DNA from: Synechococcus sp. A15-28
GTDB lineage: Bacteria; Cyanobacteriota; Cyanobacteriia; PCC-6307; Cyanobiaceae
Reading direction: 5' to 3'
Assembly (NCBI RefSeq): GCF_014280175.1
Contig: NZ_CP047931.1
Span: 930,001-962,000 of the forward strand
Length of the DNA stretch: 32,000 nucleotides
The notes below the pieces were generated by a model, which saw only the letters and a program-made list of their open reading frames with translations, had not been told where the DNA came from and did not search any database. Numbering within the stretch: the stretch's first letter is position 1; every line of letters begins with the position of its first letter. Of the stretch, positions 3,648-12,227 are shown piece by piece. The position numbers were made by a program, and so were the translations under genes.

Positions 3648-3717
3648 GGCTAACTGTCTATGGCTAAATCTTAAGGGTTGCCTCGCGAAGATGGGATTAA
3701 CAGTCTGTAGTCAATGC

Positions 3718-3745
3718 TTGACGTCTAATAAACCAGGACTATGAT
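3718..3745 (+). promoter_or_regulatory. Candidate sigma70-type promoter for the AT-rich operon (TTGACG-16 nt-TATGAT)
   Basis: TTGACG at 3718-3723 and TATGAT at 3740-3745, 20 nt upstream of the mrpC ATG. This would give a very short leader, so the call is tentative. Confidence 0.3.
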
Positions 3746-3765
3746 TCATACGAAAAAGAATCTTA

Positions 3766-4110
3766 ATGGTATTAACTCCTGAAAAATTAAGATTAATACC
3801 CATGGTGGTGCTGATTGTGATCGGCTGCTTTGGTCTGCTGACTTCGAAATCGATTCTGCGGTCGCTCTTTTCGCTTGATGTGATCGATACAGCAACAATT
3901 AGTATTTTTGTTCTAATTGCCGCGTCGGCCGGGTCTCAAACACCAATTGTTTCTGATTTTCGCTACAGCTCCTATTCGGATCCATACCCGCAAGCCATTA
4001 TTTTGACCGCAATTGTGATTGGTTTTGCTGCCCAAGCACTTTTGTGTTCGATTGCCCTTCGCCTAGGGCGTAGCTCGCCATTACTGCGATACAAAAATCT
4101 GGAGAAATGA
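3766..4110 (+). CDS. mrpC: Mrp/Mnh cation:proton antiporter subunit C (NuoK-like)
   Basis: 114 aa, 3 TM, NuoK/MnhC-like. 'SLFSLDVIDTA' and 'PYPQAIILTAIVIGFA'. ATGA overlap with the next gene. Confidence 0.8.
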   Translation: MVLTPEKLRLIPMVVLIVIGCFGLLTSKSILRSLFSLDVIDTATISIFVLIAASAGSQTPIVSDFRYSSYSDPYPQAIILTAIVIGFAAQALLCSIALRLGRSSPLLRYKNLEK

Positions 4111-5654
4111 TGGAATTAAGCATTCTTTTCCCGGCTTTAATTTTTTTGCCAGCAGCCCTAGGCTTTTTAGGTTGCATTTCTCCAAGGATAGTTTTTCCGA
4201 TAAGTATTGCAATGCTGCTTTCTTACGCAGCTCTCGCAGTAAATTCAATTAATTCTGATTTCTCTTACGCATTCACCCTGATCGGCGATGGTGGAATTCA
4301 GTTTTCAATTGACCAATACACCTTTCCCTTGGTATTTGGGAGTTCCGTCACACTCCTGATTTCTTTCGGCCTTTTCTACAAGAAATTTTCTCATTACTTT
4401 TACCAAGTCTGCTTAGTTCTTTTTACGGCTTTACTAATTTCATTTAGTACTGTTGATCTGGTCAGCATGTTTATTGCATTAGAGCTGGTTGGATTTGCAG
4501 CATTCCTGCTCATTGCTGATCGTAATGATAAAAAATCTTTGTTCAATTCTTTTCAGTATTTAATCGGTGGCGGATTGGCCATGCTGATTTATTTGGTTGG
4601 AGTTGTGCAGGCATTTACCTATACCGGCACCTTTCTTATTGCTGACCTTGTGCGTGCTCCTGAAACAGCACTTTGTTTGATTGTTGCAGGCCTACTCACA
4701 AAATCTGGTGTTTTTCTTTGCGGGCTTTGGGTTCCTAATATTTACTCCCATGCCAATTGCCAATCTTCAGCAATCCTGTCTGGATGTGTGACCTGTGCTG
4801 GAATAGCTCCAATTGCACGGATGAGTCAAACTCTCGCACCAATTGGAGATTCCATGGTGGTTATTGGTGTCATTAGTGCCGTGGTTGCTGCAATTTATGC
4901 AGTTTTTGAACGTGAGAGTGGTCGCGCTCTAGGCTGGAGTTCTGTATCACAACTCGGAATTGCAATTTTGTCACCGACCTATGCGTGTATTTATGCGATG
5001 CAGCATGGGATTTGCAAAGCCCTTCTATTTTCGACGTTACACACAAATTCAAGCAGTCAATTACCCCATAACTCTCACAGCGCACTTGGACATCACGGTC
5101 ATCAGTTGTCTACGAAGCATCCACCGATAGAGGAGTTTCTCCGGGTTTTAGTGTTTGTCATTGCCAGTTTATCAATTATGGGTTTTCCCTTCTTAACTGG
5201 CTTTGTCACAAAAAACTGGGTCAAAAGTGACTTACCATATGAAGCCAAAATTATTTACACTACTGCAGCATTATTAACATCGACAGTTTACGCACGTCTG
5301 ATTTACGATAGAACATCTCATTACATCAAAAATTATGGAACGAAATCAATAATTAATCTCCAACACATTAGTCGTAATGTTATTGATATTCTCTCTACGC
5401 CCAGACTTTGGATTTTGATATTCTCCTTTTCGCTTTTAATTGCTTATTCCTTTACTCAAACAGACATTTATTACGCTTCTTCGATAAGTTCTGCAATCAC
5501 TTCTGCAATTCTTGGTGGAATTCTTTTTGTCTCCGTGGTTGGAATCCAAGCTGATGAATTCGTCAAACCTGTTACGAGGACTTTGGATCTCGTGGGAGCG
5601 CCTTTTCTCGTCGCAGCTCTTTTGCTGGCCAATCTCCTGTATTTAAAAATCTGA
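4107..5654 (+). CDS. mrpD: Mrp/Mnh antiporter subunit D (NuoN/M-type antiporter-like subunit)
   Basis: 515 aa polytopic protein. 'LVSMFIALELVGFAAFLLIA', 'LTKSGVFLCGLWVPNIY', 'LGWSSVSQLGIAIL' and 'HGICKALLF' match proton-conducting antiporter-family hallmarks. Confidence 0.85.
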   Translation: MMELSILFPALIFLPAALGFLGCISPRIVFPISIAMLLSYAALAVNSINSDFSYAFTLIGDGGIQFSIDQYTFPLVFGSSVTLLISFGLFYKKFSHYFYQVCLVLFTALLISFSTVDLVSMFIALELVGFAAFLLIADRNDKKSLFNSFQYLIGGGLAMLIYLVGVVQAFTYTGTFLIADLVRAPETALCLIVAGLLTKSGVFLCGLWVPNIYSHANCQSSAILSGCVTCAGIAPIARMSQTLAPIGDSMVVIGVISAVVAAIYAVFERESGRALGWSSVSQLGIAILSPTYACIYAMQHGICKALLFSTLHTNSSSQLPHNSHSALGHHGHQLSTKHPPIEEFLRVLVFVIASLSIMGFPFLTGFVTKNWVKSDLPYEAKIIYTTAALLTSTVYARLIYDRTSHYIKNYGTKSIINLQHISRNVIDILSTPRLWILIFSFSLLIAYSFTQTDIYYASSISSAITSAILGGILFVSVVGIQADEFVKPVTRTLDLVGAPFLVAALLLANLLYLKI

Positions 5655-6088
5655 TGGCAAATTTTCTAAGACTGTGCCTTGTTTTGATTTTCCGGCTGAC
5701 GTGCTGGTGCCTTGTCACATCAAACCTCGACCCTAAAAACATTCTATTTGGCCTTCTTATATGCATTTTAATTCCATTTGGTGACTTCAGAAAGCTTCAG
5801 CTTAATGTCCTCATCCCAGAAATACTATTGACTTTGAGATTGCCAATCGATATGTTAAAGGAAAGCATTCAATTAATGTTCATCTCTGAACCTTGCGACT
5901 CATTTGTAGAGGAAAAGGTGAGCGATCGCGCTCGAAGAGGTTCCAAGTATGCCGAGTTTCTTGACTTGTTCCGTATAACATTTACTCCAATGTCATTGGT
6001 CACACGCCGTAAGGATGTGGACTCCTGGAGAGTGCATCTTGTCGTTAATTCTACTGAGGTCAACTCAGAAGGAGGTGATCAAGCATGA
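5654..6088 (+). CDS. mrpE: Mrp/Mnh antiporter subunit E
   Basis: 144 aa, two N-terminal TMs, and a C-terminal 'FRITFTPMSLV...WRVHLV' resembling the MnhE 'ITLTPGT...H' motif. Start overlaps the mrpD stop (TGATG). Confidence 0.7.
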   Translation: MANFLRLCLVLIFRLTCWCLVTSNLDPKNILFGLLICILIPFGDFRKLQLNVLIPEILLTLRLPIDMLKESIQLMFISEPCDSFVEEKVSDRARRGSKYAEFLDLFRITFTPMSLVTRRKDVDSWRVHLVVNSTEVNSEGGDQA

Positions 6089-6363
6089 CTACGATACAAG
6101 CCGTTCCAGTGAGCGTTGTTGAGTATGCAGTTATTTACGGCATGCTAGTTATAAGCATGGTTCCTGTCATTGCTATTTCACGCACAAGAGATACCCCTGA
6201 AAGAATCGCATATGCCTCTAGTTTCGGAAGTAAATTAGCTTTAATCATTATCACAGCGGGCATCTTTCGTGGTGATTGGATGATTGGTTGTATTGGAGCT
6301 TTCATTCTTATTGTTGGGGATGCAGGAATGTTGATTCTTTCCCTTTTGGAAATGAAAATTTAA
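6085..6363 (+). CDS. mrpF: Mrp/Mnh antiporter subunit F
   Basis: 92 aa, 3 TM, in the position and of the size expected for MrpF. GGAGG precedes the ATG, with an ATGA overlap onto mrpE. Confidence 0.6.
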   Translation: MTTIQAVPVSVVEYAVIYGMLVISMVPVIAISRTRDTPERIAYASSFGSKLALIIITAGIFRGDWMIGCIGAFILIVGDAGMLILSLLEMKI

Positions 6364-6364
6364 C

Positions 6365-6631
6365 ATGTTAGAAAATACTTCTACTTCTATTGTCTTTATT
6401 GGTCTTGTTTTCTGGCTCTGGGGAACTTTGCCTATTTTAAATCGACAACATTCAATCTTTTATAAATTACATACTCTTACTGTCGCTGACAGCGTTGGTT
6501 CACTTCTCATTATTTCCGCTTTATTGTTGAGGGCACCTCAATACTGGCCTCTGTTCCTGGTAACAGCTATTTCTCTTTCACTGTGGAATACTGTTCTCAG
6601 CTACATCCTTGGCAATACTTCTGATCGTTAA
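6365..6631 (+). CDS. mrpG: Mrp/Mnh antiporter subunit G
   Basis: 88 aa. 'GTLPILNRQHSIFYKLHTLTVADSVGSLLI' resembles the MnhG 'G..R.pD.y.RlHa....dt.G' motif. Confidence 0.7.
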   Translation: MLENTSTSIVFIGLVFWLWGTLPILNRQHSIFYKLHTLTVADSVGSLLIISALLLRAPQYWPLFLVTAISLSLWNTVLSYILGNTSDR

Positions 6632-6633
6632 TC

Positions 6634-7170
6634 ATGACTGAATACCTTCGAACGCTACTGCTCTTTCCATTTGAGCTTCTTCTTCCTGTTCTGGGACTGT
6701 TGCTGATTCAGTCCGAGTCGCCTATTAATAGTTTAATATATCGCTCATTTCTCGGAAGCATTGCCGCTCTTATTTATGCACTTATTGGTGCTCCAGATGT
6801 TGCTCTAACAGAGGTCATGGTTGGCACTCTCCTCTCATCATTGATTTATATTGTCACGATACGTTCCTGCTATACAGTCGTTATAATCGTTGACCGAAGT
6901 TCCCCTCCTGATACTGCGTTAAAAGACTCACTCAAATTAATTTTTGACGAACTCCATCTTAAAGTTGTTTATCAAGAGGAGGATATGACTGAATCAATGG
7001 AACACAACTTTCAGTTCCTCTCCTCATCAAAACTATCTGGCTCCCCACATACACTGATGTGTAGAACAACATTCTATGTTGAAGTTAAAACTTTGTTAGA
7101 CGATATTTGTCAAACTACTGCATACAAGCAAAATACTGCACTCTTTCAACTGAAGGAGGCGTTCTCATGA
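6634..7170 (+). CDS. MbhD/DUF4040-like membrane subunit (MrpA C-terminal-like) with an unusual ~85-aa soluble tail
   Basis: N-terminal 3-TM block 'YRSFLGSIAALIYALIGAPDVALTEVMVGTLLSSLIYIV' is like DUF4040/MbhD. The C-terminal half is hydrophilic. The NuoL-like MrpA N-terminal domain is absent. Confidence 0.6.
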   Translation: MTEYLRTLLLFPFELLLPVLGLLLIQSESPINSLIYRSFLGSIAALIYALIGAPDVALTEVMVGTLLSSLIYIVTIRSCYTVVIIVDRSSPPDTALKDSLKLIFDELHLKVVYQEEDMTESMEHNFQFLSSSKLSGSPHTLMCRTTFYVEVKTLLDDICQTTAYKQNTALFQLKEAFS

Positions 7171-7880
7171 CAATCCTATCCAATCTTCGTCGATTCAGGT
7201 TCACAACTGAAGTAGCAAAATCTGCTCTTTACCTTGCTGCTATTACAGCAGTGATGGCTATGATCCTATTTACGCGAGATGACTCCATAGCTCGCGATAC
7301 TGAACAGATTGTTCAATACTTATCTGACTATACGCAGATTCCTAACGTTGTAACTTCAGTCATTCTTGGGACAAGGCTCTTCGATACGATCGGTGAGGTC
7401 ACTGTATTTACGATTGCTGGTTTAGGTGTGAAGATACTTCTTCACGACGAAGACGCTGAAGAGCAGTTCGTGGGAATTGATGACCAAGTTATTCGTCTTT
7501 TGTTGGACTTTGCGGCACTTTTGAGCTGCTTCCTTGCCATCGATCTTGCCGTTAAAGGGCATTTGACGCCTGGTGGTGGATTTGCCTCTGGTGTTGCCGG
7601 TGCTACATCAATTACACTCCTTATGATTACAGGGCGCATTCAGACAGTGGAAGCCTTCTACTTCGGAGCCAACGCCCCTGCTGTTGAGAAAATAGCCGTT
7701 GTTCTATTCATTCTTGTCGCCTTATTTACCTTCAGTTCTTTCCTTGTATCTGATTCTGTGTTTGCATCAATACCTCCAACAATTTATATTCCAGCTCTTA
7801 ACATCATTGCTGCATTGAAGGTTACTATAGGTTCTTGGTCTATATTGCGTCTTTTCATTGTTAAGAGAGGGGTTCTCTAG
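7167..7880 (+). CDS. mrpB: Mrp/Mnh antiporter subunit B
   Basis: Start chosen at ATG 7167 (ATGA overlap with the upstream stop, GGAGG at 7154-7158) rather than the track start 7107. Motifs 'NVVTSVILGTRLFDTIGEVTVF' and 'GHLTPGGGFASGV' are MnhB hallmarks. Confidence 0.8.
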   Translation: MTILSNLRRFRFTTEVAKSALYLAAITAVMAMILFTRDDSIARDTEQIVQYLSDYTQIPNVVTSVILGTRLFDTIGEVTVFTIAGLGVKILLHDEDAEEQFVGIDDQVIRLLLDFAALLSCFLAIDLAVKGHLTPGGGFASGVAGATSITLLMITGRIQTVEAFYFGANAPAVEKIAVVLFILVALFTFSSFLVSDSVFASIPPTIYIPALNIIAALKVTIGSWSILRLFIVKRGVL

Positions 7881-8656
7881 TGATGGCCTATAGAGAGTCG
7901 GATGACTGGTACTTCGGTGATTACCTAGGCCGTATGCCTGGCCGTAGTTATTCACTATTTCTAAACTTTGTTATTATACTACTGTTTGCGCAAATTGCTT
8001 TAACAACTGAACCAACTGCTCACAGCAAGACTGGCGATATATTCCTTGATTTTGCCCTTGAGCTCATTGAGATTTTTTTTGTATGTGATTATATTGGTAA
8101 AATTGCAAACTCTTGGTCTAGATCTGATTACGGCCTGAAAAACCTTTTTGCCATACTATTTTCAAGGTTTGCTTTAATTGATTTTGCTCTTGTGTTTTTA
8201 CTATTGACAGACTTATTTGATAATGATTCTTTTGTAGTAATTTTTACATATGTTTTCAAGGCGCTTTTGTCAATGTACTTTTCTAGTTTTCAATCTGTCA
8301 TCAAGCGCGTCGGATTTATCGTTCTTGATTCACCTGCGTATACTTTTTTCCCGCTTGTCTTGCTCTCAATGGTGACCTATATAATGGCATTTTGTATTTA
8401 TTTGTTGGAGAGAACAAATGATGCTGAACACTTCGGTTCGATTGTACGAGCTTTTTGGTTCTCTATTGTCACGATGACAACTATTGGATATGGCGATGTT
8501 ACACCTACGACTTCGCTCGGAAAAATTCTTGCCATTGCATTCGGTATCATAGGGATTGTATGTGTGGCATTGTTGACGGCAAATATTCTTGAAGCAAATT
8601 CAAAATTTAATGAGCTCCAGTCTGATGCAAAATGCAAAGGTCTGACTCTGAATTAG
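7880..8656 (+). CDS. 6TM potassium channel (Ion_trans type) without cytoplasmic regulatory domain
   Basis: Canonical K+ selectivity filter 'TMTTIGYGD' between two C-terminal TMs, with about four TMs upstream. Start is GTG 7880 or ATG 7883, abutting the mrpB stop (TAGTGATG). Confidence 0.85.
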   Translation: MMAYRESDDWYFGDYLGRMPGRSYSLFLNFVIILLFAQIALTTEPTAHSKTGDIFLDFALELIEIFFVCDYIGKIANSWSRSDYGLKNLFAILFSRFALIDFALVFLLLTDLFDNDSFVVIFTYVFKALLSMYFSSFQSVIKRVGFIVLDSPAYTFFPLVLLSMVTYIMAFCIYLLERTNDAEHFGSIVRAFWFSIVTMTTIGYGDVTPTTSLGKILAIAFGIIGIVCVALLTANILEANSKFNELQSDAKCKGLTLN

Positions 8657-9411
8657 CTGTGTTTCAGAATGATCAAAGATCTACTCGAGACCATTCCCTT
8701 AATCACGTGCTTGACGTTGGCACACCCTATAAGATATTCGAAGCATATATATCATCCTATTCGCAATTCATAGACTTCATTAAATTTGGCTGGGGAAGTG
8801 CATTGATTGATCCTGAGTTTAAGTTGAAGAAGCAATTGTGTGATGAGTTCGATATTGTTCCTATGCTCGGAGGTACCTTTTTTGAATATATGATTCACCA
8901 CCATAGTTTCAACCATTTTATTGATACTGTCTCTAGCTTTGGGCTTAAATGCGTGGAATTAAGTCGAGGAACGATTGACATTGAGGATGCTTTATATGCA
9001 TCATATATTAAGTCTTTAGTGACTGATTTTTTTGTGATGAGTGAGGTCGGACGTAAGTCTGCACATCCTTCCTTGGCTCTTACTTCTTCACAATGGCTTT
9101 CTCATTGCGAATTATCTGCCAATGCAGGAGCTTCCTTGGTGATTTTGGAATCTCGGGAGTCTGGACGATCTGGTTATGTTTCGACAAGCGGTGATGTTAA
9201 TGCTGTGATGATTGACTCGATCACAAAAGTAGTTCCTGTGGATTCTCTTCTTTTCGAAGCTCCTATCAAATCGGTGCAGACTTTCTTGATCAAGCGATAC
9301 GGGGCTTCGGTTAACCTAGGGAATTTGGCTTTGTCAGACTTGATGTCTGTTCAGTCCCTGCGATTTGGGCTCCGCTCAGACACATTACTTGATGTTCAGG
9401 AAAGTCTTTAG
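8632..9411 (+). CDS. comA: (2R)-phospho-3-sulfolactate synthase family protein (ComA/YitD-like)
   Basis: 'FIDFIKFGWGSALI', 'GGTFFEY', 'VELSRGTI', 'VMSEVGRK', 'VILESRESG', 'LLFEAP.K..Q', 'GASVNLGN' and 'LRFGLRSDT' match my recollection of M. jannaschii ComA and B. subtilis YitD almost block for block. The start may instead be GTG 8659. Confidence 0.85.
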   Translation: MQRSDSELAVFQNDQRSTRDHSLNHVLDVGTPYKIFEAYISSYSQFIDFIKFGWGSALIDPEFKLKKQLCDEFDIVPMLGGTFFEYMIHHHSFNHFIDTVSSFGLKCVELSRGTIDIEDALYASYIKSLVTDFFVMSEVGRKSAHPSLALTSSQWLSHCELSANAGASLVILESRESGRSGYVSTSGDVNAVMIDSITKVVPVDSLLFEAPIKSVQTFLIKRYGASVNLGNLALSDLMSVQSLRFGLRSDTLLDVQESL

Positions 9412-9483
9412 ACGTGCTTTTCGTGTTTGTTTGATCCATGGTCATTCCCCTACTTTCCGCCTATCATGAGTTAGTACATTACC

Positions 9484-10377
9484 TTGAAAAAAGCGGTGGC
9501 AAGAGTTACTAGATTTGCATTTGTCCTTTTAATTGGAATAATATTTTCTCTTGGCTTTACTTTTCCTTTGAACGTCGAAGCTGCTGAAAATAGTTTTATC
9601 AATGATATTCAGCAGCGCGGTTTTCTAAAGGTTGGCTTGCCACCTTATAATACTCCCCCCGCTTATTATATTGACCCAAAGACTGACAAACTGTCGGGTT
9701 ACGATGTAGAGTTGGCGCGGCAATTGGCGGGCAAGTTAGGAGTTAATGTCGAATTTGATCGGACATCTGAGAGCTTTAATTCTCTTGTGAAAAGGGTTGG
9801 AGCTGGCGATTTTGATCTGGCAATCGGCAAGCTTGGGCTCACTTATAACCGTTTGTATGATGCATTCCCAATTCAATACCTCAGCTTCCGCCACGCTCTA
9901 CTTGCGAATCGCAAATTCATTTCTTCCTTAAAGGTTGATCCTGACGATCCTGAATTTGGCAGCGCCCTTAAAAGTTCGCAAATACGTATTGGTTCGATCT
10001 CGAACTCTACTTGGGAGACAGAGGCAAGGGTCAATTTCCCTAATTGTGAGTTCGTTGGTTTCTCCAGCTGGGATGAAGCTAAAAAAGCTCTGTTTGATGT
10101 AGATCCCAAAACAAACATGTCAACTATTGATGCGATCTATCGTGATGCGACCGAAATCAAGCCAATTGTATATAAAAATCCTGATTTGTCGTTGGATTTC
10201 GTTCCAGTTCTCTTTGATGACACTATTGACCGTAAATCTATATACCTCTCGGAAGCTGGGCATATTGCTTTCTCGGACTTTCTGAATACATTCATTCGTC
10301 GTGAATGGGGAGAGGTAAAAACTGATCAGCGAATTCTTGATGATTTTCAGTCTTACTACCAGCCATCAATTAATTAA
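9484..10377 (+). CDS. Periplasmic solute-binding protein, family 3 (polar amino acid/organic anion SBP fold)
   Basis: TTG start (or GTG 9496). Sec signal 'FAFVLLIGIIFSLGFTFPLNVEA|AE'. SBP_bac_3-like 'GFLKVGL...PPAYYIDPKTDKLSGYDVELARQLAGKLGVNVEF'. Confidence 0.75.
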   Translation: MKKAVARVTRFAFVLLIGIIFSLGFTFPLNVEAAENSFINDIQQRGFLKVGLPPYNTPPAYYIDPKTDKLSGYDVELARQLAGKLGVNVEFDRTSESFNSLVKRVGAGDFDLAIGKLGLTYNRLYDAFPIQYLSFRHALLANRKFISSLKVDPDDPEFGSALKSSQIRIGSISNSTWETEARVNFPNCEFVGFSSWDEAKKALFDVDPKTNMSTIDAIYRDATEIKPIVYKNPDLSLDFVPVLFDDTIDRKSIYLSEAGHIAFSDFLNTFIRREWGEVKTDQRILDDFQSYYQPSIN

Positions 10378-10392
10378 TTTCTTCCTTTAGTC

Positions 10393-11775
10393 ATGTCCTT
10401 CTCAACCTCTAATAGTTTTTTTCATCGGCTTTTCTCTATTCTTCCTGTACTGCGTAAGCCGCGAAACTTTTTCTTCTATATTCTTCCTTTTTCGATTGTC
10501 TTTGGTCGCATTATTCCGCCATCCTATGCATCAGCTTTGAATGAAGCTGGTCTGGCGATGGTTCAACTTATTGCTTTCCCGGCCATTCCTTTGGTCTTGT
10601 CGGCGGTGATGATCTCGATTTGTAATATATTTAGTGCGAATAACCGATCACGACTTAGTAGGGTTCGCTTCTCTGGTCGTTTCTTGATATCTCTGTCGTT
10701 GACAATCCTCTTGGCTGCTTTGCTAGCCATTCTTCTCTCGATCTATCAGTCGCCAGGTGTGTTGTCGCCAGAAGGTAAATTGTCAATTGGTCGGTTTATG
10801 CTTGACATTACTGATATACGTATCGGATCTGCTCTGGTTGATTCGGAAGCTGCGAGTGATTTTTGGATTGCGAAGATTGTTCCAAGTAATATCCTCGCTG
10901 ATGCGTCACAAGGCCAGACGCTACGAGTGATTAGTGGTTCGGTTTTGGCTGGTATTGCAATGTCAAAGCTCAAGCCTTCTTTAACTGACCCTTTGATTTC
11001 AGTATTGAGAAGCGTCAATTCTACATCTGTTCAGGTATTGAATATTGTTCTCAATCTTGCTCCTCTTGTTCTGATCTGTTTGATATCAGGCGCGGTGTCA
11101 ACCATAAATGCTGAGATTGTTGTCGCCTTGTTGAATTTCACGATCTGTGTATTTTTGACAGCTATAGCATCGCTCGGGATTTCACGCCTTGTTTTTCGGA
11201 GATTTACATCCACGAGCGAGCGTGACTCGCTCTCGTCTAATCCCATCGACTCGGTATTTCTGCTCAGTCTTTCGACCGGGAGCAGCATGACTGCCTATCC
11301 CTTGATGTATGAAACATTAATCGGAATTGGGAGGGACGAGTCTGAGGTTGAAGCGTCAGCCTCGCTGAGTTTGTTAATCGCTCGCCTAGGCAATGTCACG
11401 TACAATGTCATTGCGATCATGTTCGCTTTGAATCTTTATGAAGTAGGCATAACTCCTGTGCGGTTTTTCGAAATCCTCGTTCTAGGTGCGGTTACTGGAA
11501 TATCAGCAGCAGGTTTGACGGGCGTTGCGACTGTCCCCACCATCGGAGTCGCTCTTGCATACTTCCAGCTTCCTGTTCCACCTGTGCTTGTTCTTCTTCT
11601 TGCGATTGATCCGATTCTTACTCTTCCACGTGCTGCGACGACAGGTGTTTTGGCTATGGCCATCTCTGTTATCTCCTCAGGACGTTCTACTTCGACAGAA
11701 TCTTCTTCGAAGTCTGGATCATCCTTTTCACTTCTCAGTCAGGATGGTGAAGCTCCCTCATTGGAAGGAGGCTGA
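10393..11775 (+). CDS. Divergent dicarboxylate/amino acid:cation symporter (DAACS/SDF, GltP-like)
   Basis: 460 aa polytopic protein. HP1-like 'STGSSMTAYP', TM7-like 'GNVTYNVIAIMFA', HP2-like 'GISAAGLTGVATVPTIGVAL', TM8-like 'AIDPILTLPRAATTGVLA'. Ser-rich C-terminal tail. Confidence 0.7.
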   Translation: MSFSTSNSFFHRLFSILPVLRKPRNFFFYILPFSIVFGRIIPPSYASALNEAGLAMVQLIAFPAIPLVLSAVMISICNIFSANNRSRLSRVRFSGRFLISLSLTILLAALLAILLSIYQSPGVLSPEGKLSIGRFMLDITDIRIGSALVDSEAASDFWIAKIVPSNILADASQGQTLRVISGSVLAGIAMSKLKPSLTDPLISVLRSVNSTSVQVLNIVLNLAPLVLICLISGAVSTINAEIVVALLNFTICVFLTAIASLGISRLVFRRFTSTSERDSLSSNPIDSVFLLSLSTGSSMTAYPLMYETLIGIGRDESEVEASASLSLLIARLGNVTYNVIAIMFALNLYEVGITPVRFFEILVLGAVTGISAAGLTGVATVPTIGVALAYFQLPVPPVLVLLLAIDPILTLPRAATTGVLAMAISVISSGRSTSTESSSKSGSSFSLLSQDGEAPSLEGG

Positions 11776-12227
11776 TGAAGCTCCTGCCAGGCATTGTTGA
11801 ATTGGTTGAAATCCTTAGCAAATTCTTTATTTCTTTGCTGACGGTCTGTCTGTTGACGGCTTGCTCTGTGCGCAATGAACCACCGCGTGCCATTGTCATC
11901 GAGGCTTTGCAGTCTCAAATCCTCACGACTCAAGTCTCCATTGCCCAGAGTCTGGACTTAGAGCCATTAGCTTCTGCACCAGATGTCAGTCGTGTTCGCG
12001 TTGACCATCAAGAAGCTCTGCAGGTTGATGGAGAGCGTTTCGTTCATCTGGAAGGAAGTTTTGATTGGCAATTGCCTCGAGATAGTGTTCGCGTAGACAG
12101 TACTTTTGATCTTTACCTTCAGCGTGGTTCGCGTGGTGAGGGCTGGAATCTGGCCAGACCTGTCACCAGCGATGGTGATGAGGCCCAGCGTTGGTTGCTC
12201 TATCCCCTCGGCTTGCCCGCAAGTTGA
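11775..12227 (+). CDS. Hypothetical lipoprotein
   Basis: Strong GGAAGGAGG lies 6 nt upstream. Start overlaps the upstream stop (TGATG). Lipobox 'LLTAC'. Composition is intermediate between the island and the backbone. Confidence 0.5.
   Translation: MKLLPGIVELVEILSKFFISLLTVCLLTACSVRNEPPRAIVIEALQSQILTTQVSIAQSLDLEPLASAPDVSRVRVDHQEALQVDGERFVHLEGSFDWQLPRDSVRVDSTFDLYLQRGSRGEGWNLARPVTSDGDEAQRWLLYPLGLPAS

Follow-up and report, generated by a model that had tools for sequence, protein, structure and literature searches.

What does a periplasmic binding protein do when the gene beside it encodes a secondary transporter and the parts of an ATP-binding cassette (ABC) system are missing? The question is raised by a 32-kb stretch of the complete, 2.34-Mb genome of a marine Synechococcus (genome coordinates 930001-962000, hereafter the window), in which the gene for a substrate-binding protein (SBP) of the SBP_bac_3 family is followed by that for a carrier of the SDF family (DAACS; TC 2.A.23). 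According to the first-pass annotation of this DNA, an SBP with a signal peptide precedes the SDF gene by 15 nt in an array that lacks ABC permease and ATPase genes. The open reading frames (ORFs), the Pfam matches and the spacer itself bear out the first statement, and the absence of any BPD_transp_1 or ABC_tran match in the window bears out the second. Here, we find that the two genes very probably form a conserved, co-inherited functional unit. We favor the view, derived from comparative sequence evidence, that this unit is a binding-protein-dependent secondary uptake carrier of the elevator type for a carboxylate-bearing solute.

Conservation and co-inheritance of the gene pair

In all 18 picocyanobacterial loci that were drawn from genome collections together with their upstream DNA, the SBP gene lies directly upstream of the SDF gene on the same strand. 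These loci take in Prochlorococcus (~50% identity) and one family-level relative (30 to 34%). For a wider sample, metagenome contigs were scanned with an alignment of 13 distant carriers that held no SBP information, which gave 80 loci, and these were then searched with an SBP hidden Markov model (HMM). At least 700 nt of upstream DNA is available for 65 of the 80, and a strong SBP match was found directly upstream of the carrier in 62 of them and directly downstream in 1; the remainder consists of L087, where a single ORF encodes an SBP, a transmembrane helix (TM) and an SDF carrier, and L060, which has no SBP. The spacers in related loci mostly measure -23 to +100 nt. Hence, the co-occurrence that the first-pass annotation had proposed as a check holds in both samples.

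As a negative control, 24 ordinary SDF genes from a phylum-level genome scan were inspected, several of them with NMDG and all from one non-photosynthetic bacterial family, and none had an adjacent SBP gene. The true clade members in that scan had one in four of six cases. Likewise, no SBP gene adjoins E. coli dctA (NC_000913). Given these conservation counts and the control, the adjacency of the two genes is far above chance. The overall tally of the phylum-level scan (228 of 401 genomes) is unusable as a count of the clade, because ordinary SDFs of that non-photosynthetic family also pass at its threshold.

The two proteins also occur as one polypeptide. In P0355, from a Wallbacteria metagenome-assembled genome (MAG), and in L087, a leader and an SBP part are followed by one extra TM, basic residues and the SDF part, and both SBP parts belong to the SDF-linked subfamily described below (156 and 120 bits, respectively). 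The extra TM would keep the N terminus of the carrier inside and hold the SBP, attached to the carrier, on the outside of the cell. Judging by this domain order, P0355 and L087 are genuine Rosetta-stone fusions. P0037 (602 aa), which resembles a fusion, was discarded as a read-through into non-coding-like sequence, and P0203 (350 aa) on account of a mis-called start.

A profile search of 1.84 billion representative proteins yielded a few picocyanobacterial clusters, beyond which the relatives form a continuum; nearly all of these relatives are without the NMDGT motif and have xxR[FY]Gxxx[YF][FY] in TM7 and AIDPIxDPxRT in TM8. In the motif alignments that were examined, NMDGT is missing from the SBP-linked carriers. 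Named members come from Gloeomargarita, Prochlorothrix, Pseudanabaenaceae, Spirulinaceae, Glaciecola, Spirochaetota and Wallbacteria, and with many other cyanobacteria and many metagenome lineages the clade is widespread. A tree of 111 carriers unites the window protein with the fusions and all SBP-linked carriers in a single clade (support, 100; branch length, 1.19) that stands apart from the canonical and control SDFs. The picocyanobacterial carriers nest among other cyanobacterial members on a long branch, the internal order of this FastTree phylogeny with its long branches being uncertain.

Across 71 loci, the pairwise distances between SBPs correlate with those between carriers at r = 0.96 (r = 0.88 for distant pairs), a value reached by 0 of 999 permutations in a Mantel test. 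This co-divergence implies that the two genes have been inherited as a unit, without swapping of partners. At the level of single residues, K116 of the SBP and R397 of the carrier (GltPh numbering) are both present in 65 pairs and both absent in 5, a co-variation that corresponds to about one event on the tree and that we give little weight. Contigs or proteins 66 to 85% identical to the genes of Synechococcus (L005 [JAAXIK010000309.1], P0010 and P0204) are labelled as Rubripirellula, Verrucomicrobiales and Paracoccaceae MAGs; most likely, these are mis-binned picocyanobacterial contigs rather than cases of transfer.

The binding protein and the carrier

The SBP matches PF00497 (SBP_bac_3) with an E value of 1.1e-10 and 41.8 bits (cut-off, 26.4), and both lobes are covered when a profile of 17 orthologues is aligned with AncCDT-1 and amino-acid SBPs (E, 7.6e-18). 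Its AlphaFold model, with a predicted local distance difference test (pLDDT) score of 85, has two lobes and is paired by Foldseek with the SBPs 5kkw, 5t0w and 9e2b at a probability of 1.0. Thus, both the profile score and the complete, two-lobed type II fold place it in SBP_bac_3. The leader has a basic start (MKKAVARVTR), a hydrophobic core and an AxA-type end (...NVEA/AEN). A comparable hydrophobic leader ending in A-A-E-N is present in all aligned orthologues, and all 54 family SBPs with a complete N terminus have a hydrophobic leader, signal peptides having been judged from sequence and hydropathy only.

Two motifs connect this protein to ligand binding. AIGKLGLTYNR aligns with SGMTITPER, the ligand-carboxylate loop of AncCDT-1. 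R123 does not vary among the 71 paired SBPs, 66 of which also have K116; on this alignment R123 is the retained loop Arg that in SBP_bac_3 binds the carboxylate of the ligand. D221, equally invariant (71/71), aligns with DAMVTD of AncCDT-1 as the Asp of the DAxxxD motif. An HMM built from the picocyanobacterial orthologues alone gave 100 to 190 bits (median, 155) for the SBPs beside distant clade carriers, 68 bits for the best solved ABC-type SBP and 45 bits for a generic SBP, and it did not match the other three SBP_bac_3 proteins of the host genome. By these scores, the SDF-linked SBPs are a distinct subfamily of SBP_bac_3. One of its members (L021:3696-4829) carries an N-terminal peptidoglycan-binding domain, PG_binding_1 (Pfam was run on L021 only), and other SBPs of 370 to 410 aa (L022, L030, L035, L039 and L041-L043) have a similar N-terminal extension of ~100 to 170 residues.

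The carrier, the product of the only SDF gene in the host genome, matches PF00375 (SDF) with an E value of 6.1e-35 and 121.4 bits (cut-off, 27.9). Residues 35 to 428 cover positions 13 to 384 of the 387 in the profile, a full-length match. Its profile matches in the PDB are 9bgz, an ancestral uncoupled transporter, and GltPh. The predicted model (pLDDT, 73) has the eight TMs and the hairpins HP1 and HP2 of the GltPh-type fold, and Foldseek relates it to 9bgz, GltPh, ASCT2 and EAAT1 (probability, 1.0; TM-scores, 0.6 to 0.77).

Within this fold, the residues that bind coupling ions are gone. The Na+-site signature of SDF carriers comprises NMDGT with N310, M311 and D312, together with N401 and D405, and the H+-type signature comprises L311 and N405 (PMC12668577). 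In GltPh numbering, the window carrier keeps D390 and R397 and has Thr for D394, Ala for T398, Thr for N401 and Ala for D405, while ARLGN stands in the place of NMDGT and GLTG replaces GVPG in HP2. In the alignments no Na+-site residue survives, and the H+-type signature L311/N405 is missing too. The position of Met311 is held by Arg in 65 of the 71 paired clade carriers, and this Arg is the obvious candidate for a compensating charge. The first-pass annotation had called the carrier atypical and quoted four features, GNVTYN, GSSMTAYP, the TM8 string DPILTLPRAATTG and a Ser-rich tail. All four are present in the translation and the motifs do deviate from canonical SDFs, but they are the signature of a large clade and not a peculiarity of this protein. 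Several clade carriers encoded by ORFs of 578 to 631 aa (L059, L063-L067, L069, L071-L073, L078 and L082) have a C-terminal extension of 150 to 190 residues that gave no match in Pfam.

Of the substrate site, on the other hand, part is kept and part replaced. HP1 retains STGSS, and D390 (D406 in the carrier) and R397 (R413) are in place. The replacements at D394 and T398 are as in DctA; TM8 of E. coli DctA, read from NC_000913, has S394, R397 and A398, and the Synechococcus carrier shows the same S/T394-R397-A398 pattern. The Prochlorococcus branch retains D394. Of the 71 paired clade carriers, 67 have D390 and 65 have R397, and HP1 and HP2 are conserved across the clade as well. Since Asp or Glu occupies position 394 in 51 of the 71 pairs, and since a catabolic-type Asp/Glu racemase-family gene lies just upstream of the SBP gene in 29 of the 80 metagenome loci, an acidic amino acid is the probable substrate for the greater part of the clade. 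For the Synechococcus branch, the DctA-like T394, R397 and A398 suggest an acid that may lack the alpha-amino group. The peptidoglycan-binding SBP and the racemase neighbors are a hint that acidic amino acids in D or L form are taken up, and these may derive from the turnover of cell walls.

Proposed uptake, its alternatives and the genomic setting

We infer docking, direction of transport, energy coupling and substrate from these data as follows. The SBP_bac_3 protein would be exported to the periplasm and capture a scarce carboxylate-bearing solute there. The loaded SBP would then dock on the outward face of the elevator-fold SDF carrier and hand over the solute for import. The carrier itself belongs to a large clade that has lost the Na+-site residues and has a fixed Arg at the Met311 position, whereas the serine motif of HP1, D390 and the R397 that binds substrate have been kept. 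Secondary uptake is the most economical explanation, given an exported and sometimes tethered SBP, retained substrate-site elements, catabolic neighbors and the lack of an ABC partner. The suggestion of an SBP-assisted elevator carrier in the first-pass annotation thereby gains comparative support from the conserved pair, the natural SBP-TM-SDF fusions and the missing ABC parts.

Several observations weigh against this proposal. Adjacency and co-divergence show a functional unit and not a hand-off mechanism; with every known ion-coupling residue lost, the proposal does not account for the energy source; and confidence in the carrier model is moderate only (pLDDT, 73). Some clade carriers, namely, L060, L082, L104 and L105, lack a regular adjacent SBP, most other cases of this kind in the clade being contigs that end upstream. 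In L082, a BvgS-like kinase with SBP domains adjoins the carrier. In P0290 and P0359, the carrier is fused to a TM-dCache-TM-guanylate/adenylate cyclase, giving proteins of 1200 aa. Finally, P0265, P0269 and P0293 have an SBP_bac_3 domain at the C terminus, with no TM between it and the carrier.

Some of these variants deserve a closer look. The C-terminal domains of P0265, P0269 and P0293 are generic (28 to 57 bits) and, considering the missing TM, probably cytoplasmic. For both reasons we have not counted these proteins in support of a periplasmic hand-off, although a ligand-binding domain on the inner side of an elevator carrier would be unusual in itself. L099:632-1969 is a clade carrier of the same build, its C-terminal SBP_bac_3 domain being generic and following the carrier part without a TM. 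P0290 and P0359, one of which also contains TPR repeats, are candidate transporter-receptor chimeras. The hybrid histidine kinase of L082 (L082:1411-4932; SBP_bac_3 domains, HisKA, HATPase, REC and Hpt) lies directly upstream of the carrier in the place of the free SBP. Its SBP domains are generic and fall outside the SDF-linked subfamily (33 bits), and a permease-like ORF of the polar-amino-acid ABC type (PAAT) is found 3 kb downstream. L104 and L105, from two genomes of one genus (G557 and G333), score ~400 bits, have AVDxxVNPFRA in TM8 and no SBP gene in the 1.5 kb to either side; these carriers may have become independent of the SBP secondarily or may use one whose gene lies at another site.

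In the host genome, the pair is part of an island (window positions 3648 to 12227) with a G+C content of 0.37 to 0.48, compared with ~0.6 in the flanks. The island is an array of 13 co-directional genes between ruvA and an EamA-type transporter gene, in the order Mrp/Mbh-like subunits, K+ channel, ComA, SBP_bac_3, SDF carrier and a lipoprotein-like ORF of 150 aa, orf150 (Table 1). Gene transfer is its probable origin. Of 201 species genomes in the host's family, only 4 encode the carrier, in agreement with a flexible gene borne on an island.

TABLE 1. Features of the SBP-SDF locus (positions in the window)
Feature	Position	Strand	Remarks
Mrp/Mbh-like cation:proton antiporter genes	3766-7880	+	Pfam matches; G+C content 0.37-0.43 versus ~0.6 in flanks
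6-TM K+ channel	7880-8656	+	Pfam Ion_trans and Ion_trans_2
ComA-type phosphosulfolactate synthase	8632-9411	+	Pfam ComA, E 1.3e-59; optional context gene
SBP gene	9484-10377	+	SBP_bac_3 fold, 297 aa, TTG start; SDF-linked SBP subfamily
Predicted signal peptide	9484-9585	+	Residues 1 to ~34, ...NVEA/AEN; read from translation
SBP motif AIGKLGLTYNR	9820-9852	+	K116, T120, R123; family signature A-I-[SG]-K-L-S-x-T-x-x-R
SBP motif YRDATE	10138-10155	+	R220, D221; family signature Y-R-D-E
Spacer, SBP stop codon to carrier start codon	10378-10392	+	15 nt, read from sequence
SDF carrier gene	10393-11775	+	Divergent SDF/DAACS (GltPh fold), 460 aa; SBP-linked clade without NMDGT
HP1 serine motif STGSSMTAYP	11272-11301	+	Residues 294-303; aligns with STCSSAATLP (9bgz) and STSSSAATLP (canonical SDF)
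TM7 ARLGN in place of NMDGT	11380-11394	+	Residues 330-334; Arg (R332) at Met311 position
TM8 DPILTLPRAATTGVLA	11608-11655	+	D406 = D390, T410 = D394, R413 = R397, A414 = T398, T417 = N401, A421 = D405 (GltPh numbering)
Ser-rich C-terminal tail	11674-11739	+	Predicted disordered; pLDDT <50 from residue 434; poorly conserved among orthologues
orf150	11775-12227	+	Lipoprotein-like, LLTAC lipobox, 150 aa; start on last base of carrier stop codon

The company in this island (Mrp-like antiporter, K+ channel and ComA) suggests that the pair serves scavenging or the ionic or osmotic balance of the cell, but these partners are lineage-specific. The K+ channel is the commonest third partner in picocyanobacteria, being present in 14 of the 18 loci, Prochlorococcus included; it is absent from L004 and L014 and unseen in two loci with shorter upstream DNA. 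ComA is present in 8 of the 18 and absent from 10. The Mrp genes are found in the Synechococcus loci and are absent from those of Prochlorococcus (L003, L017 and L018), where the conserved unit consists of K+ channel, SBP and SDF, without Mrp or ComA. orf150, which could be a third component, is present in L002, L005-L010 and L015 (59 to 79% identity), that is, in Synechococcus loci only and not in those of Prochlorococcus. It has no match in Pfam or NCBIfam, and its matches in the ESM Atlas are cyanobacterial hypothetical proteins only. No homologue of Mrp, the K+ channel, ComA or orf150 was found in the 86 loci outside picocyanobacteria.

Might the pair sense rather than transport? In a sensory or regulatory module, the SBP would report its ligand to an SDF transceptor or co-sensor, or gate the K+ channel or Mrp, with little or no net transport. 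There is precedent in DctA, which acts as a co-sensor for DcuS. The fusions of clade SDF domains to TM-dCache-TM-guanylate cyclase receptors in P0290 and P0359 point in this direction, as do the position of the L082 carrier after a hybrid histidine kinase bearing SBP_bac_3 domains, the loss of ion-coupling residues and the K+ channel gene near the pair in most picocyanobacterial loci. However, the SBP domains of that kinase are generic, and neither the window island nor the surroundings of most of the 80 metagenome pairs encode a signalling output domain. Moreover, HP1, HP2, D390 and R397 stay conserved throughout the clade, K+ channel, Mrp and ComA are absent from 86 of 86 loci outside picocyanobacteria, and the catabolic-type racemase-family gene in 29 of 80 loci fits import of a substrate. 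We therefore regard a sensory module, the main rival of the uptake carrier, as unlikely, and the sensor role that the first-pass annotation had considered for the SBP is weakened by the missing output domains. A split version of a GluR0-type ligand-gated K+ channel was rejected because the channel partner is lineage-specific. The channel of the window carries Ion_trans and Ion_trans_2 only, and ComA separates its gene from that of the SBP.

Alternatively, the SBP might serve a distant ABC transporter and adjoin the SDF gene only through a shared substrate, the two being independent routes of high and low affinity under shared regulation. The nearest ABC ATPase matches lie at 920.5 kb and 995.2 kb, and the host genome encodes a single ABC system of the polar-amino-acid type, at 781 to 785 kb and thus 150 kb away, with an SBP of its own. 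Orphan SBP_bac_3 genes do exist elsewhere in this genome, and several SBPs can share one ABC translocator, as HisJ and LAO do, which is a precedent for such an arrangement. Nevertheless, the two genes are adjacent in 62 of 65 diverse loci, and of 110 loci a single one has a PAAT permease-like ORF in the vicinity of the pair. The cognate ABC genes that would have spoken for this explanation were looked for, and none was found nearby in the other 109. In addition, the SBPs are a subfamily of their own and have diverged in step with the carrier, the covalent SBP-TM-SDF fusions make an ABC partner unnecessary, and a pair that travels in a mobile low-GC island (4 of 201 species) would need a compatible ABC translocator in each recipient. 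This explanation appears very improbable to us.

Least credible of all is export or exchange, in which the carrier would release an anionic solute such as ComA-derived sulfolactate and the periplasmic protein would bind or buffer it, for although ComA is adjacent in the host genome and 7 related loci and the residues for coupling uptake to Na+ are gone from the carrier, 10 of the 18 picocyanobacterial loci and all others lack ComA, fused and peptidoglycan-anchored SBPs fit the capture of an external ligand, and SBPs, to our knowledge, work with importers or sensors and not with exporters. The same distribution, with ComA in about half of the picocyanobacterial loci and in 0 of 86 others, lends little support to the sulfonated, ComA-related substrate suggested in the first-pass annotation. 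ComA-derived sulfolactate finds no backing in co-occurrence and is left as a speculation for the Synechococcus branch only.

Comparison with known transport systems

SBP-dependent uptake by a secondary carrier would not be without parallel. TRAP and TTT were the only known classes of SBP-dependent secondary carriers until TAXI-GltS of Bordetella pertussis (BP0403-BP0402) was proposed as the third, and its authors predict further classes among elevator carriers and ask whether the elevator mechanism permits the use of an SBP (Jaques et al., Commun Biol 2025; PMC12344293). The carriers of all three are elevator-type or thought to be so, which is a precedent for the uptake carrier that we propose. 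As would be expected of an SBP-dependent class, SBP and carrier are adjacent across distant lineages here, and fusions occur in which the SBP would lie on the outer side of the membrane. Neither protein family is that of TRAP, TTT or TAXI-GltS, so that the SBP-SDF pair lies outside all three and could only be a new class. A full-text literature search, with most subscription journals outside its coverage, returned no description of a system that combines an SBP with an SDF/DAACS carrier. We think it rather likely that the two genes encode a secondary transporter that depends on its binding protein and represents a type so far undescribed.

A more far-reaching version, which we consider doubtful but worth stating, is that the pair represents a third or fourth independent invention of SBP-dependent secondary transport, built on the archetypal elevator fold, in which the carrier does without Na+ and the classical residues for H+ coupling, the fixed Arg at the Met311 position replaces a bound cation and the SBP largely provides directionality and affinity for an elevator that is ion-uncoupled or differently coupled. 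If true, an SBP-gated, ion-uncoupled elevator would directly test whether SBP dependence is an intrinsic possibility of elevator carriers. More generally, SDF/SLC1 is the best-understood elevator family (GltPh and EAATs), and an SBP-dependent branch of it would be a structurally tractable test case, while a branch without any known ion-coupling residue bears on the evolution of coupling (compare PMC12668577). In marine Synechococcus and Prochlorococcus, the pair would add a capacity for uptake that is flexible, carried on an island and possibly relevant to niche adaptation. It also follows that the current annotation is misleading, given that these genes are uniformly labelled as an ordinary glutamate/dicarboxylate symporter and an ABC substrate-binding protein.

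How, then, does the pair compare with its relatives? The carrier shares the fold, the HP1 serine motif, D390 and R397 with canonical SDF/DAACS members such as GltPh, GltP, DctA, EAATs and ASCTs. Unlike them, it has lost NMDGT (ARLGN here and xxR[FY]G in the clade), N401 and D405, and it has GLTG in HP2. A dedicated SBP gene accompanies nearly all clade carriers, whereas none was found beside the canonical members examined. The SBP, for its part, has the two-lobed fold, R123 and the DAxxxD Asp (D221) in common with ABC-type SBPs (HisJ, LAO, ArgBP and AncCDT-1) but differs from them in having no cognate permease or ATPase and in the extra K116 and R220 (KLS...R and YRDE signatures). Furthermore, the SDF-linked members include some with a peptidoglycan-binding domain at the N terminus and some that form one polypeptide with the carrier. 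The GluR0-type ligand-gated K+ channel is a poor parallel, as the channel here has no SBP domain and there is no obligate SBP-channel gene pair.

Among SBP-dependent carriers, TRAP (DctPQM) and TTT (TctABC) likewise combine a periplasmic SBP with an elevator carrier encoded next to it, transport organic acids and use an ion gradient rather than ATP, as is proposed here. Their SBP and membrane families are unrelated to those of the pair, however, which has no small Q or TctB-like subunit, and TRAP carriers are Na+ dependent, whereas Na+ sites are absent from the SBP-linked carrier.

The closest precedent is TAXI-GltS. There, the SBP belongs to TAXI and not to SBP_bac_3 (PF00497), and the carrier is of the GltS/ESS family and not of SDF/DAACS (PF00375, GltPh fold). 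In addition, the loss of Na+-site residues sets the SBP-linked SDF clade apart, and the SBP of our pair is known from its sequence and a predicted model. In both systems, nevertheless, a secondary carrier of a kind that normally works alone and that is thought to be elevator-type is directly linked to the gene for an SBP, TRAP, TTT and ABC membrane parts are lacking, the proposal draws mainly on gene context and the properties of the SBP, and rare natural fusions join the SBP to its carrier.

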